This document shows positions 2,319-64,000 of a DNA stretch of 64,000 nucleotides, in pieces. Position numbers and translations under genes: made by a program. The stretch's first letter is position 1. Each line of letters begins with the position of its first letter. The notes below the pieces were generated by a model. It saw only the letters and a list, made by a program, of their open reading frames with translations. It was not told the origin of the DNA and ran no database searches. The DNA is taken from IMG/VR virus record IMGVR_UViG_3300005617_000117, positions 1 to 64,000 of that record. One strand, 5' to 3'. The DNA comes from a virus.

Positions 2319-3119
2319 ATGGCTAACCGAGTTATTACAGAGCAAGAACTAGCTACAATCGCTCAATATGCTGAGTTAGGCAAGTCTGACGCCGAGATCG
2401 CAGATATTCTTGGTTGGACGGCGAATATGGCTAATGCTCCACGAGCCGTTGCCAAACAGCGTCGTAAGCTAAACTTAAAGAAGCGTGGCAACAATGAATT
2501 CAATCTCGTTAAAAAAGATGTCAGTCATCTAGCCAAAAATAAACTTCTCGAAGTCATGACTCGTCAAGAGAGATTTGACTTTATAAAGGCACGCATCAAT
2601 ACAAATCCTCGTAATATGATTGTGTTTTCTTCGCTTTCCGTGGAAGAACAAGCAGTCTTCCTTGATGCCTACTATAATATCTTGCAATCCACAGATTCTC
2701 TTACAGAGGCCGAAGAACAGCAACTTTTCCTTGCAATGATCGAATACGTGCTTTCGCTTCGAGCCCTTCAAATGAAGTCCGAAGAAGAGAAGTGCGTTAA
2801 GGAAACTCTACAAGGCGTACACGAAAAAGATAGTCCTCGTTACAAGTTGTCAACAAATCCTAGATATGACGAGGCTTACCAGAACCATGTAGAAAACTAC
2901 GAACGTCTTATGAAGACGCTAAAAATGTCTCGTCAACAGCGTCTTGAAAAAGTGAAGAGCGACCGTCGAACACTAGTTGATGTTGCTTCTGAATTGTCAA
3001 CGCAAAACGCTCAGGCTCAGGCGGCAGATGAAATTGAACGCCTATCTATTGTGAGCGACGAGGAACTAAAGAGACTTTTGGAGAACGGGTATATTTCGGG
3101 GCTTTTTGAGAGCAAATAA
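2319..3119 (+). CDS. putative terminase small subunit (HTH protein)
   Basis: N-terminal HTH-like GKSDAEIADILG, helical or coiled-coil remainder, and position upstream of TerL. Confidence 0.45.
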   Translation: MANRVITEQELATIAQYAELGKSDAEIADILGWTANMANAPRAVAKQRRKLNLKKRGNNEFNLVKKDVSHLAKNKLLEVMTRQERFDFIKARINTNPRNMIVFSSLSVEEQAVFLDAYYNILQSTDSLTEAEEQQLFLAMIEYVLSLRALQMKSEEEKCVKETLQGVHEKDSPRYKLSTNPRYDEAYQNHVENYERLMKTLKMSRQQRLEKVKSDRRTLVDVASELSTQNAQAQAADEIERLSIVSDEELKRLLENGYISGLFESK

Positions 3120-4051
3120 TGAAAATAGCAATGTTGTTCGCCCATTGGCGTCAGTTTGGTGAATCGTGGTCAACTCCACACTCTTGGCAAGACGAATTAA
3201 CTGCTCGTGGACACGAAGTAGTTGTTTATAATTTATACCACAACAATGGTGAATTAAATCGTAAAACGCGAATGCGTTCTTATTCCGACGCTGGACTTAA
3301 TCAGTTACATAATGATGTATGTGCTGGTATCCATTATGATGCTATTTATGTGCTAGATTACGGGCCTTGGCAAAGTTTGCGTCTTTGCAAGCAATATTTC
3401 CAAGACTCGATTCTTATTAAAGAATGCGGAGACGAGCCACAAGCACACCAGCTTCATATGCAAACGGCTCGCCAGTTTGATATTGTTCTGACTCCTGATA
3501 AAAGATGTGCAGCACGCTATCAGTCATTGGGAATCCCTGCAACTTGGCAAACCCACTTCGCTGACACAAAAATCTTTTATCCCCGCCCCGATATTGCGGA
3601 ATCTTGGGATTGCGTTACGACTTGCGGCCCCCGAGGTAATGGACTAACAGAAGAAATTAAGGCGGCCCTCGGAGATCGCTTTAATAACGAGCGTTATTTC
3701 TTTGGAGAAGATCACGCCAAGCGATTGTCTATGGGAAAGATAGTATTTCAGAAGTCTCAGTATGGCGAAATAACCCGGCGAATCTTCGAAGGTATCGCTT
3801 GTGGCAAAATGGTTATCGCTGATAAACTATCCGATGATACAGGTTTATCTTCTCTTTTAGAGGATGGTAAGGATATCGTTTATTACACGAATGCCACCGA
3901 GGCAATTGATGCAATAAATCACTATAGTAATCATCACGAAGAAAGACTAAAGATTGCGGCGAGCGGCTTTGACAAAGTGACCAAGTTACATAGTATTGGT
4001 GCCAGAGTAGATGAATTAATGGGACTCATCAATGACAAGCTCAAAACGTAA
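3119..4051 (+). CDS. glycosyltransferase, GT-B fold (CgeB / Glyco_trans_1_2-like)
   Basis: Typical CgeB-like C-terminus: ITRRIFEGIACGKMVIAD, DGKDIVYY, EERLKIAASG...HSIGARV. Confidence 0.85.
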   Translation: MKIAMLFAHWRQFGESWSTPHSWQDELTARGHEVVVYNLYHNNGELNRKTRMRSYSDAGLNQLHNDVCAGIHYDAIYVLDYGPWQSLRLCKQYFQDSILIKECGDEPQAHQLHMQTARQFDIVLTPDKRCAARYQSLGIPATWQTHFADTKIFYPRPDIAESWDCVTTCGPRGNGLTEEIKAALGDRFNNERYFFGEDHAKRLSMGKIVFQKSQYGEITRRIFEGIACGKMVIADKLSDDTGLSSLLEDGKDIVYYTNATEAIDAINHYSNHHEERLKIAASGFDKVTKLHSIGARVDELMGLINDKLKT

Positions 4052-4850
4052 TGGTATTGTGTCAGATTTTAGTAAGGCAGAATATAAACCGCACGATCCT
4101 ATGTGTGAGCCGGGATTAGTCTCTATTTTATTCCTATCGTGCAACAAACATAAGCTTGCAGATATTAGTCTTGCGTCCACGCACGCGGCCACGCGGGCAC
4201 ACGCGGGCGAGATAGAATGGTGTTTGCTAGAGCAGGGCACTGGAGAAGATGCCGACGACAACATTAGATTATTTCGGGATTTAAAGGTTGAGCGAAAAGC
4301 CATTATATTGCCAGACACAAACTACGGTATTAACAGTGGTTTCAACTCCCTATGGGCTATTTCCAGGGGAGAATTTTGTATGCACCATGAATCTGATTGG
4401 TTGAATCGACATACCTTTTTTGACTTCTTGCAATTAGCCAAGGAAATTATGGCTGAAAAATCAGAGGTTGGTATCGTTCAACTAAGGGCACCGAGCGATC
4501 CCAATGAGAACTGGGGACGCGGTAAACCGCAGTATAATCCTTGGTCTTGTTCTACCAAAGAGTTAGAAGACGCGAAAGTAAAAGTCTGGCTCGAAAAGAC
4601 AAAGAGCGGTCACGAGTACGGCATTTCGGAATTTGCTAATGGCTGGAATCATAATCCACAATTGGTTCGCAAGAGCTTATTTAGAGAGTGTGGGCCTCTT
4701 CCAGAACCGCCATTAAATTGTGATCTTCGTCATGGTGAAACAGAAATGGCCGAAAGGGTAGCCAATACCGGATGTGCTATTGCTCATATTGGTATTGAAC
4801 TATATTATCATATTGGTGGTGCCGTCAGGAGCTTATATGAACGATCATAA
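4032..4850 (+). CDS. glycosyltransferase, GT-A fold (GT2-like)
   Basis: VSILFLSCN start, NYGINSGFN, RGEFCMHHESDW (ExD motif), C-terminal YYHIGG. Confidence 0.75.
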   Translation: MTSSKRNGIVSDFSKAEYKPHDPMCEPGLVSILFLSCNKHKLADISLASTHAATRAHAGEIEWCLLEQGTGEDADDNIRLFRDLKVERKAIILPDTNYGINSGFNSLWAISRGEFCMHHESDWLNRHTFFDFLQLAKEIMAEKSEVGIVQLRAPSDPNENWGRGKPQYNPWSCSTKELEDAKVKVWLEKTKSGHEYGISEFANGWNHNPQLVRKSLFRECGPLPEPPLNCDLRHGETEMAERVANTGCAIAHIGIELYYHIGGAVRSLYERS

Positions 4851-62069: not shown

Positions 62070-63151
62070 TGATGATTTTTGAGAGTCTTTCGTTTGATGA
62101 CGTAAACTTAATTCCCAAGTACAATGACAAGAGTAGAAAACAAGTTTCTATTGCGATGGATTTTGCAGGATTTGTTTTTGCTCATCCATTTATTTCTTCT
62201 AATATGGATACCATTACGGGGCCAAAGATGGCCGCTGCAATGCATGAAACAGGTGGTTTCGGTATTCTCCATAGATTTTGTACTATTGAAGAAAATCTTC
62301 AAATGTTTAAAGATGCTGGCTGTGTATGGCAAGGATCGTGTGACTATAAGAGTCATGGCGTTGGAGTTTCTATAGGCATTAAAGACGAAGAAATCGAACG
62401 AGCCGCCGCCCTGTACGAAGCGGGTGCCCGTATTATTTGTGTTGACATTGCACATGGTCATTCCAAGCAAATGGGGCAAATGCTCAAAAAACTCAGAGAT
62501 AATTTTCCAGGCATTACATTGATTGCCGGTAATGTCGCCACATATGCTGGAGCAGACTATCTTATTAGTTGTGGTGCTCACGCCGTTAAAGTAGGCATCG
62601 GTCCCGGCGGAGCGTGTTCTACACGCATGAAGACTGGTTGTGGAGTGCCACAATTAACTGCAATCATGGAGGCTTCTAAGGCTAATGGAATTATTATTGC
62701 CGATGGTGGCGTAAAGACTCCTGGCGATGCAGTTAAAGCTTTAGCTGCCGGGGCACACTTTGTCATGCTCGGCTCATTCTTCGCCGGTTGTAGCGAGACG
62801 CCCGGCGAAGTTGTCGAATATCCTAGTGCTAATTCCGACTTGCTTTATGGTAAACCAATTAATCACATTATTCGACGCAAGCGTTTCCGTGGCATGGCTT
62901 CACGCGAAGCCCAAGAAGATTTTATGGGCAAGATGGATGATTGGAAGACGGCCGAAGGCGTCTCCATCGAAGTACCTTACACTGGTCCAGTAGCCGATAA
63001 GGTTGCTGATTTATGTGGCGGTCTTCGCTCAGGCATGACATATTGCGGGGCCGCTTCAATAGACGAGCTACACCGTAGAGCAGATTTTACAAAGATTTCA
63101 CATTCAGGTTATATGGAGGGTACACCCCATGCGTCCACTAGATTGGCTTAA
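62069..63151 (+). CDS. IMPDH/GMP-reductase family oxidoreductase without CBS domains, probably GMP reductase-like
   Basis: [73 protein letters not shown]. The flap lacks the IMPDH Arg-Tyr dyad. Confidence 0.9.
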
Positions 63152-63500
63152 AAATTTAACATGGATTAGAGCAATTCGTCTTTACCCAACTGCTAAACAA
63201 AATTACGCTTGTTTATTAGATGCATATATTAACCTTGTATCAAAGGTCAAAGAATTAACTATTCAACTTGAAGCAAAGAATGCTATGCGATCTGTTGCCG
63301 ATATTCTTGCTCCAAAGGAACAAGAACGAAGTCAACCATATAAAACGTCCCACGAAGGCGTGAGAATGAGCACTTTAACGTGGCACGAAGAGAGACTTTT
63401 GAGAATCGAATTGCAGGCTTATAAGGATAAGCTAGCAAAGGCCAGCGATCAGATTGACTCACTCAAGGACGAGGTACGACATGCCAACAGGGCCGATTAA
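63129..63500 (+). CDS. hypothetical coiled-coil protein
   Basis: 123-aa ORF after RBS ggagg, overlapping both neighbours. Confidence 0.6.
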   Translation: MRPLDWLKNLTWIRAIRLYPTAKQNYACLLDAYINLVSKVKELTIQLEAKNAMRSVADILAPKEQERSQPYKTSHEGVRMSTLTWHEERLLRIELQAYKDKLAKASDQIDSLKDEVRHANRAD

Positions 63501-64000
63501 GGTTGTCCACCATTCAAAAACAATAGGATATTCCGGCACAGATAGAACCGCACAACTCATGTGCAAGTATCTGGCCAAAGATCCTAGATTTGAGCCGTTC
63601 TTGGTTTATAGAACGGATGGTGATAATTCTCGGCTAGAAATTATGCGTAGTATTCTAGGCGATAGTCATGTTATTCCATACGAATGGGTTCCGGGGAAGA
63701 AAGGTCGTCAGGCTCCATATCTTCCAGAACATGATAATTTATACGAAGTCATTGAAAAGATTAATCCTGATATCATGCACGTTCATAGGTCTGGCTATCA
63801 GGAATGGCCTTTGCGATATGTCGCTCCAAAAGCAACATGGGTAGAAACGAATATCTTTGGATTCGGAGACAAATCAAACGATATTGACCAGCATATCTAT
63901 ATCTCGGATTTCATTCGGAACACGGCAATTAAGTGTGGGAATCCACATGGTCCAACCCTATACAATCCTATTGAATCGCCAGTGCCGCATAGCGAATTGC
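63481..64000 (+). CDS. glycosyltransferase GT4-like, truncated by the window end (paralog of 60939..62069)
   Basis: Not in the ORF track. gaggt RBS, ATG 63481, open to the end: MPTGPIKVVHHSKTIGYSGTDRTAQL...PDIMHVHRSGYQEWP...WVETNIFG...LYNPI, matching the 60939 protein. Confidence 0.8.
   Translation, partial: MPTGPIKVVHHSKTIGYSGTDRTAQLMCKYLAKDPRFEPFLVYRTDGDNSRLEIMRSILGDSHVIPYEWVPGKKGRQAPYLPEHDNLYEVIEKINPDIMHVHRSGYQEWPLRYVAPKATWVETNIFGFGDKSNDIDQHIYISDFIRNTAIKCGNPHGPTLYNPIESPVPHSEL

Follow-up and report, generated by a model that had tools for sequence, protein, structure and literature searches.

Whether a phage that encodes a series of glycosyltransferases (GTs) uses them on its own particle is the question raised by the first 64,000 nucleotides of IMG/VR virus record IMGVR_UViG_3300005617_000117 (the window), in which these genes occur together with tail proteins rich in the dipeptide Ser-Gly (SG). 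A sequence-only reading of the window had proposed that the enzymes glycosylate outer virion proteins at Ser-Gly sites. The window represents bases 1-64000 of one 102,814-bp virus contig (102.8 kb), a fragment of an uncultured tailed phage with a CheckV completeness of about 66%. In total 13 GTs and four S-adenosylmethionine (SAM) methyltransferases, one of them of the FkbM type, were found on the contig, which supports the view that a large machinery for building glycans, soluble throughout, is encoded by the phage. This glycan factory of about 23 kb is part of the conserved core in a phage lineage that is large and abundant and has no cultured member at all. As had been noticed in the sequence-only reading, the SG excess is real: 13 tail proteins (5,859 aa) contain 141 SG dipeptides against 56.7 expected (z 12.6), a 2.5-fold surplus.

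The glycan-building island and its conservation

Glycosyltransferases were called from Pfam matches above the curated cut-offs, with the ESM Atlas serving for the gene at 4032-4850. On this basis all eight GT genes named in the sequence-only reading were recovered (seven by Pfam and the one at 4032-4850 by the ESM Atlas), and both GT-A and GT-B folds are present among them, as had been recognised; the gene starts used here for two of them, 54513 and 63454, lie a few codons from the earlier 54519 and 63481. The window genes described in this section are located on the + strand, which holds nearly all genes of the window.

The main island contains a core GT4-type enzyme (54513..56324; PF00534 and DUF4214) with a CxxC...CxxC insert and a C-terminal DUF4214 domain. 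The insert is Zn-ribbon-like, occupies approximately residues 298-338 (window 55404-55530) in the C-terminal lobe, and recalls the iron finger of the heptosyltransferase TibC. Next to this gene are encoded a second core enzyme, of the GT1 family (56324..57580; PF00534), and a GT2-family enzyme (57573..58607; PF00535, 6.6e-7), and further downstream another GT2 enzyme (60103..60954; PF00535) and a GT1 enzyme (60939..62069; PF00534). A 462-aa island protein (58636..60024), found only in G000 (the present contig) and G001, had no match in Pfam, PHROG or NCBIfam and gave a weak Atlas lead to clusters resembling α/α-toroid glycoside hydrolases. Also inside the island is a core gene for an enzyme of the IMPDH/GMP-reductase family without a CBS domain (62069..63151; PF00478, 5.6e-98, with NCBIfam in agreement), which may supply guanine nucleotides for GDP-sugars. 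The GT1/GT4 enzyme that crosses the window edge (63454..64572) matches PF00534/PF13692 over its full length. Past the window the island extends to about 77 kb and comprises three more GTs, four methyltransferases, a HAD hydrolase, an NTP-transferase, a GMER-like, that is, fucose-synthase-like, epimerase/reductase (contig 75085-76017; PF01370/PF16363) and a GDP-mannose 4,6-dehydratase (GMD; contig 75992-77023; PF16363, 1.9e-109), while a further GT2 is found at contig 96.9 kb. The encoded set for GDP-sugar synthesis thus consists of the NTP-transferase, the HAD phosphatase, GMD, the GMER-like reductase and the IMPDH-like enzyme.

Further sugar genes are positioned upstream of the gene for the large terminase (TerL). 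These are a CgeB-like GT-B glycosyltransferase (3119..4051; PF13524, 1.8e-19) and a GT-A enzyme of GT2-like type (4032..4850), the latter without any Pfam match and recognised by an ESM Atlas feature score of 0.99 to viral GT2 clusters and a TM score of 0.73 to GT2 models. The small cupin that follows (4846..5181) had been described as a sugar cupin; the cupin assignment stands (PHROG 7851, 1.2e-43), and the possible relation to sugars is weak, since the matches to the WbuC cupin (1e-4) and to the PMI cupin are both below the cut-off. Neighbours of TerL include sugar genes in every clade, namely two GTs and the cupin here and GMD in the other clades.

A hydropathy scan revealed no transmembrane segments in the island proteins and no protein with more than four predicted transmembrane segments in any of the five genomes G000-G004. 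These genomes therefore lack a flippase, a polymerase, an ABC exporter and a polyprenyl-phosphate primer enzyme; likewise, no bactoprenol GT or polytopic GT, whether of the GtrABC or of the Wzx/Wzy type, was found in G000-G004.

The relatedness of the phage was followed with its structural proteins. Four other IMG/VR contigs (G001-G004, 137-182 kb), the TerL of which is 57-82% identical, are syntenic with the contig and carry the island as well as the same SG excess in orthologous tail proteins; the relatives altogether range from 137 to 183 kb. Orthologs of the CgeB-like enzyme at 3119-4051 are present in G001-G004 at 53-54% identity. A 1095-aa tail protein of the window occurs at 58% identity or more in 30 viral contigs, a 498-aa hub-like protein is carried by at least 179 protein clusters, and a profile search added 784 more distant homologs of the latter. 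Scanning with a narrower alignment of distant hub homologs uncovered 43 further viral contigs, and GT1 genes are present in 27 of the 41 that were searchable, including all seven with a completeness of 90% or more. From this distant set, four complete genomes were examined, G015 and G028 (clade B), G037 (clade C) and G006 (clade D), and trees of TerL, portal and capsid protein place clade A, to which the phage belongs, apart from the group of clades B, C and D with full support. Judged from these comparisons, the phage belongs to a large uncultured superclade.

About 26 genes are common to at least eight of nine genomes whose TerL proteins are only about 31% identical. This core includes the capsid protein, TerL, portal, DnaE, RecA and DnaB together with GT 54513, GT 56324, GMD and the IMPDH-like gene; the glycan machinery is therefore a part of the superclade core and the island is not a sporadic add-on. 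Since it is conserved on a par with capsid, terminase and polymerase genes, it is probably essential, not an optional extra for modifying the host. GT 54513 has orthologs in all nine genomes compared, and no homolog was found in cultured phages by tblastn. Its cysteine motif is retained in clades A, C and D and replaced in the SG-rich clade B. In G028 the best matches to DnaE are two separate open reading frames (88251-89879 and 91022-92581, about 520-540 aa each) compared with one gene of 1084 aa here, and the clade B polymerase may be split or interrupted.

Ser-Gly excess in the tail proteins

Expected dipeptide numbers were obtained by shuffling within each protein. SG is the single outlier among the dipeptides of the 13 tail proteins, the next one reaching a z of 3.8, and the reverse dipeptide GS is not enriched. 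In the other proteins of the contig (27,488 aa) SG is at expectation, with 105 observed against 108. The preference is for serine and for this one pair, as TG (z -1.2), NG (z 2.2) and DG (z 0.8) are not comparably enriched. Across 713 sites from seven genomes the extended context is hydrophobic(-3)-A-[APV]-S-G-[VI]-[LFY].

Proteins encoded at 28901-43253 have SG z values from about 2 to 5.7. The window tail genes with coordinates in this paragraph are on the + strand. Behind the tape measure, the 498-aa tail hub-like protein (28901..30397) has 13 SG against 3.8 expected (z 5.2). It is followed by two paralogous small tail proteins of 185 and 201 aa (30397..31750; z 2.0 and 3.0), 27% identical to each other, by a 1557-aa tail protein (32585..37258; 39 against 17.0, z 5.7) with a weak ColH PKD-like match at its C-terminus, by the conserved 1095-aa tail/baseplate protein (37258..40545; 21 against 8.6, z 4.6), and by tail/fibre proteins of 638 and 218 aa (40549..43253; z 2.8 and 3.0), the 218-aa family belonging to the superclade core. 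Another core family is represented by the 342-aa neck/tail protein (18192..19220; 6 against 1.5, z 4). The same behaviour was seen for three fibre proteins at contig 88-91 kb. Searches of PDB sequences with three of the tail proteins gave no useful match. Several tail and fibre proteins (window 40549 and 42597; contig 87179 and 87696) share an N-terminal element of the form (A/G)SGT(I/V)P(Y/N), which might serve them all as a peptide for docking onto the baseplate.

Simple causes of the excess were considered and rejected. A motif at the DNA level does not account for it, as all serine and glycine codons are used, nor does a single repeated domain, as the SG-rich proteins are mostly unrelated by BLAST; the spacing of SG has no dominant period except in one stretch of 14-residue repeats. 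It is also not a general property of tail fibres, because in T4, lambda and Bacillus phage Slash the proteins of tail, baseplate and fibres, about 11,000 aa in all, show observed/expected ratios (O/E) of only 1.19 for SG and 1.15 for GS. The SG signature is among the strongest dipeptide biases known to us in a set of proteins, and neither composition, DNA motifs, repeats nor ordinary tail-fibre architecture explains it.

The signature is maintained over large distances. In clade B the tail proteins are giant and SG-rich; one of 4148 aa contains 96 SG against 34.6 expected (z 11) in the same extended motif, and the large tail proteins of the two clades sharing the motif have no detectable homology. 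Across 66 orthologs of the 498-aa protein, the serine of SG is conserved at 0.80 compared with 0.43 for other serines, threonine being its most frequent substitute. This supports strong purifying selection on the SG excess.

The large structural proteins of the SG-poor G037 (28218-33629, 57120-71204 and neighbours) contain QG 286 times against 95 expected and are also rich in SP, PS, PT and TP, resembling collagen-like or mucin-like linkers; such linker regions could be alternative glycan acceptors.

Possible targets of the glycan machinery

Of the readings considered, virion glycosylation with SG as the leading acceptor candidate has the best support, and we put it forward tentatively. The phage would then build its own glycans in the host cytoplasm, its enzymes putting together a methylated oligosaccharide with 6-deoxyhexose directly on a soluble, phage-made acceptor, for which the tail-tip and fibre proteins would be the likeliest choice. 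Within these, the hydrophobic-A-[APV]-S-G-[VI]-[LFY] elements would be the leading candidates, the identity of the acceptor being the weakest step, and GT 54513, the GT4 enzyme with the Zn-ribbon-like insert and DUF4214, would be the leading candidate for the priming enzyme. That the SG serines are the actual glycan acceptor is doubtful; otherwise they would be structural turn residues of the tail proteins of the clade. The most complete version, a superclade-wide cytoplasmic hyperglycosylation of tail-tip and fibre proteins at an SG sequon, primed by GT 54513 and extended by clade-specific GTs and methyltransferases, seems rather unlikely as a whole. A recognition motif would agree with the restriction to serine, with the absence of the excess from other phage tails and with its presence in many proteins of two clades that are unrelated to each other.

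If the GTs modify SG sites, the two might be expected to vary together, and the sequence-only reading had suggested looking across related phages for an SG excess that tracks a particular GT ortholog. None confined to the SG-rich genomes was found, and the only gene tracking SG load is that for dCMP deaminase. The complete genomes G037 and G006 have about nine and about eight GTs, respectively, and no SG-rich large tail proteins, while very SG-rich large proteins occur with only 3-4 GTs in G015 and about six in G028. GMER was rejected as a strict marker, since the SG-rich complete G022 lacks it and the SG-poor G036 has it. At the level of core families the picture is different: almost all the genomes compared, G037 and G006 among them, show a 2-3-fold SG excess in their 342-aa, 218-aa and hub proteins, and none is seen in proteins of the head, of packaging or of replication. 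For the 342-aa family the excess was found in six of seven genomes, again with G037 and G006 among them, and was not significant in G015. Viewed through these families, the SG trait is inseparable from the core GTs, and the whole comparison rests on very few independent lineages. A link between the SG motif and the GTs is thus something that we infer; no tie between them was found, which weighs against virion glycosylation at SG, as do the uncoupled GT numbers and the dCMP deaminase profile. That an initiating transferase recognises Ser-Gly turns, as supposed in the sequence-only reading, is likewise conjectural.

The same uncoupling favours a distinct possibility, that the two observations are unrelated, SG being a structural staple of tight turns or strand starts and the island acting on another target. 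This target could be the envelope glycans of the host, assembled on its lipid carriers, or else a glycan that is soluble or lipid-linked; the island would then serve to exclude superinfecting phages, to mask receptors or to take over metabolism, roles of the kind generally assumed for GT islands of cyanophages. Further evidence points in this direction and away from SG as a glycan acceptor. In the 1557-aa protein, 72% of the SG dipeptides keep their alignment column at 38% identity, compared with 24% conservation of other serines and 58% of other glycines, and in the 66 orthologs of the 498-aa protein the glycine of SG is conserved at 0.98 against 0.82 for other glycines; such positional fixity looks like a structural constraint. 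Even hub homologs out to an E value of 1e-12 retain a 1.7-1.8-fold SG excess, the value for the most distant ones listed, compared with 2.6 for nearer ones and about 1.0-1.1 for GS.

The excess had also been described as confined to predicted outer virion proteins, and this was not confirmed. The AlphaFold2 model of the SG-rich 498-aa protein at 28901 (pLDDT 77) displays tail-tube-like domains of the kind found in a hub and in Foldseek weakly resembles proteins of the tail tube, Mu gp44 and SPP1 Dit (best E 1.1e-3); according to this model the protein would be an inner hub component, not obviously an outer one. Most of its SG dipeptides were placed by DSSP in loops directly before a strand or helix, in what is a single model of pLDDT 77; the model of the 1095-aa protein had a mean pLDDT of 38, and the 498-aa protein is the only one for which SG was placed on a structure. 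The capsid protein has neither an SG excess nor a Ser/Thr-rich C-terminus, and a C-terminal extension of that type is absent from the candidate tail proteins as well, although proteins with such sequences could still be modified. Positional conservation, presence in the inner hub and uncoupling from the GTs fit a structural motif at least as well as they fit a glycosylation site. Against a purely structural role, a generic two-residue turn should favour Asn-Gly and Asp-Gly too, and neither is comparably enriched; the tails of T4, lambda and Slash lack such an excess; and the motif recurs in proteins unrelated by BLAST and in two clades between which no homology of the large tail proteins can be detected.

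As to the enzymes, soluble peripheral GT4 and GT2 proteins commonly work on undecaprenyl-linked intermediates, which would suit a lipid-linked target. The main island is located after DnaE and a sigma-like gene, in the replication module, and carries none of the TAGTGTA(T/A)T motifs of the structural genes described below; it is therefore probably expressed with the replication genes, which is again a point for a target other than the virion. The sugar genes beside TerL in all clades point the other way. Islands of this kind have been read as serving cell-wall modification, and those of cyanophages usually as modifying the host surface or DNA (PMC12801897). However, no primer enzyme, flippase, polymerase or exporter is encoded in any of the five genomes, and glycan genes as conserved as those for head and replication would be unusual for an auxiliary function directed at the host.

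It is improbable that the SG motif is instead read by a factor other than a GT, such as a tail assembly chaperone, an enzyme for another serine modification or a host enzyme, with the island being independent of it. The occurrence of the motif in many unrelated tail proteins together, the specificity for serine and a load that, in the large distal proteins, changes from clade to clade with the core GTs retained would all agree with such a factor. Phyletic profiling offered no candidate, however, dCMP deaminase being alone in tracking the load among very few independent lineages, and among the annotated genes we noticed neither a kinase nor an acyltransferase nor anything comparable. Very improbable is glycosylation of the phage DNA as a protection against restriction, as in T-even phages and phages with glycan-hypermodified DNA. 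In its favour, the island directly follows DnaE and is near RNR, ThyX, dCMP deaminase and a T4 gp1-like dNMP kinase. We know of no DNA glycan, though, that approaches the 13 GTs, four O-methyltransferase-type enzymes and GDP-6-deoxyhexose pathway encoded here, and the core GT has no homolog in cultured phages. The lack of a hydroxymethylating enzyme, reported earlier for the window, was borne out for the entire contig: PF00303 (ThyA family) is absent from it, from G001-G004 and from four of five complete relatives, which makes eight of the nine relatives searched, and ThyX is present instead. The usual route to glycosylated DNA, by way of a hydroxymethyl-pyrimidine, is therefore unlikely as far as the gene content indicates. 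A role in DNA modification has nevertheless been proposed by some authors for GT-rich cyanophages (PMC12801897).

Should virion glycosylation at SG prove right, and SG and GTs be connected, the motif would give phage engineers a defined sequon for glycosylating tails, and the many genes of large aquatic phages now labelled as lipopolysaccharide genes could be read in a new way. If they are not connected, the motif would still be an undescribed structural element of tail proteins.

Gene layout and comparison with known systems

The contig has a G+C content of 43.7% and no tRNA genes. Structural genes recognised by PHROGs/Pfam include TerL (5945), portal (7973), capsid protein (14210) and tape measure (23833), and they are followed by a replication module with RecA, DnaB, primase, a PD-(D/E)XK nuclease, ClpP and DnaE. 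Past the window are genes for ribonucleotide reductase (the RNR mentioned above), ThyX, dCMP deaminase, the T4 gp1-like dNMP kinase, peptide deformylase, methionine aminopeptidase and a sigma factor. A megablast search with two stretches of the window gave no match among 50,697 phage records, and tblastn against cultured phages left the 1095-aa tail protein, like GT 54513, without any match; TerL matched only distant Bacillus siphoviruses (26% identity) and the capsid protein only phage G (23% identity). By these searches the phage is one without a cultured relative. The Moraphages (PMC12619734) were considered as its lineage and dismissed, no link to the phage being found.

The sequence TAGTGTA(T/A)T is located 11-134 bp upstream of eight structural genes or operons (window 7922, 10306, 16179, 19228, 31748, 32071 and 42463; contig 87081), and none is present in the replication/GT region (43-80 kb). 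It is a candidate late promoter, perhaps read by a sigma-like protein of the phage. Three such genes were recognised: one with a weak region-2 match (window 1731-2318), one for a sigma-70 region-4-like protein directly before the GT island (54020..54529, + strand; PF08281, 3.3e-6) and one with regions 2 and 4 on the - strand (contig 95891-96475). Among the remaining genes, one for RNase H (15738-16181; PHROG 531, 5e-51) lies between the capsid and neck genes and was otherwise found only in G001, the closest relative. Overlapping reading frames of 250 and 219 aa just before the tape measure (22486-23833) resemble a tail-chaperone pair made by programmed frameshifting. The gene for the ClpP-family protease (48976-49632) overlaps the end of that for the PD-(D/E)XK nuclease and has a BLAST match in G003 only among the four near relatives. 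Peptide deformylase and an M24-type methionine aminopeptidase are adjacent on the - strand (contig 92905-94355), forming a phage-encoded pair for N-terminal protein processing.

To our knowledge, glycosylation of a phage particle has been demonstrated only in mycobacteriophages, with few enzymes and with sites at C-termini. There, Freeman and colleagues reportedly described in 2023 that virions of Che8, Corndog and Myrna are O-glycosylated by GTs of the phages themselves (cited in PMC12619734). The phage analysed here resembles them in encoding its own GTs, which in mycobacteriophages modify the structural proteins of the phage in the cytoplasm. Mycobacteriophages, however, have few GTs and carry their glycans on the C-termini of capsid and tail-tube subunits, whereas the present phage, from an unrelated lineage, combines 13 GTs with sugar-nucleotide synthesis, has no Ser/Thr-rich C-terminal tails, and has its candidate sites dispersed in tail-tip and fibre proteins.

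In gene content a close parallel is the chlorovirus PBCV-1, which glycosylates its capsid with its own GMD (A118R), GMER (A295L), GTs such as A064R and the methyltransferase A061L, at virus-specific acceptor sites with non-canonical sequons (PMC9614988). Virus-encoded GMD and GMER are both found on the present contig, past the window, as are several soluble GTs and sugar O-methyltransferases (13 and four, respectively), and neither virus depends on a membrane export route. PBCV-1, however, is a giant virus of eukaryotes whose major capsid protein carries N-linked glycans, whereas the capsid gave no signal here and the candidate acceptors are tail serines; orthology of the enzymes does not extend beyond the family level, and the phage system is known from genes alone.

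For the proposed acceptor site the nearest analogy is found in TibC, which acts on TibA as AAH does on AIDA-I: a bacterial autotransporter heptosyltransferase of GT9-like fold, it uses ADP-heptose to modify serine and not threonine in the cytoplasm. Its targets are many loop serines of a beta-rich surface protein, an N-S-G-G site among them, and a four-cysteine metal finger inserted in its catalytic domain helps in substrate recognition (PMC4358343). GT 54513 likewise has a CxxC...CxxC insert, an analogy of mechanism only; the cysteines are lost in the SG-rich clade B, and no Pfam or NCBIfam match to the GT9-like heptosyltransferase family was obtained among the phage proteins scanned. Were SG a true sequon, bacteriophages would have a counterpart of autotransporter heptosylation, and virion glycosylation directed by a sequon would be described in them for the first time.

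The large cyanomyoviruses S-SCSM2R, S-SCSM1 and P-SSM2 also contain GT-rich islands, with up to 13 GTs in S-SCSM2R (PMC12801897). Like these, the phage is a large lytic aquatic phage with about a dozen GTs and NDP-sugar epimerases. The cyanomyoviruses are, however, T4-like, and theirs is a sporadic and variable gene set that includes KDO and export-related genes, whereas the present island lacks export genes and belongs to the conserved core of a superclade that is uncultured and unrelated to them. GT-rich islands of large aquatic phages (PMC12801897) and virion glycosylation by mycobacteriophage GTs are thus already known; what is new is such an island as a core feature of a large uncultured superclade, without export functions and accompanied by an extreme and conserved Ser-Gly signature.

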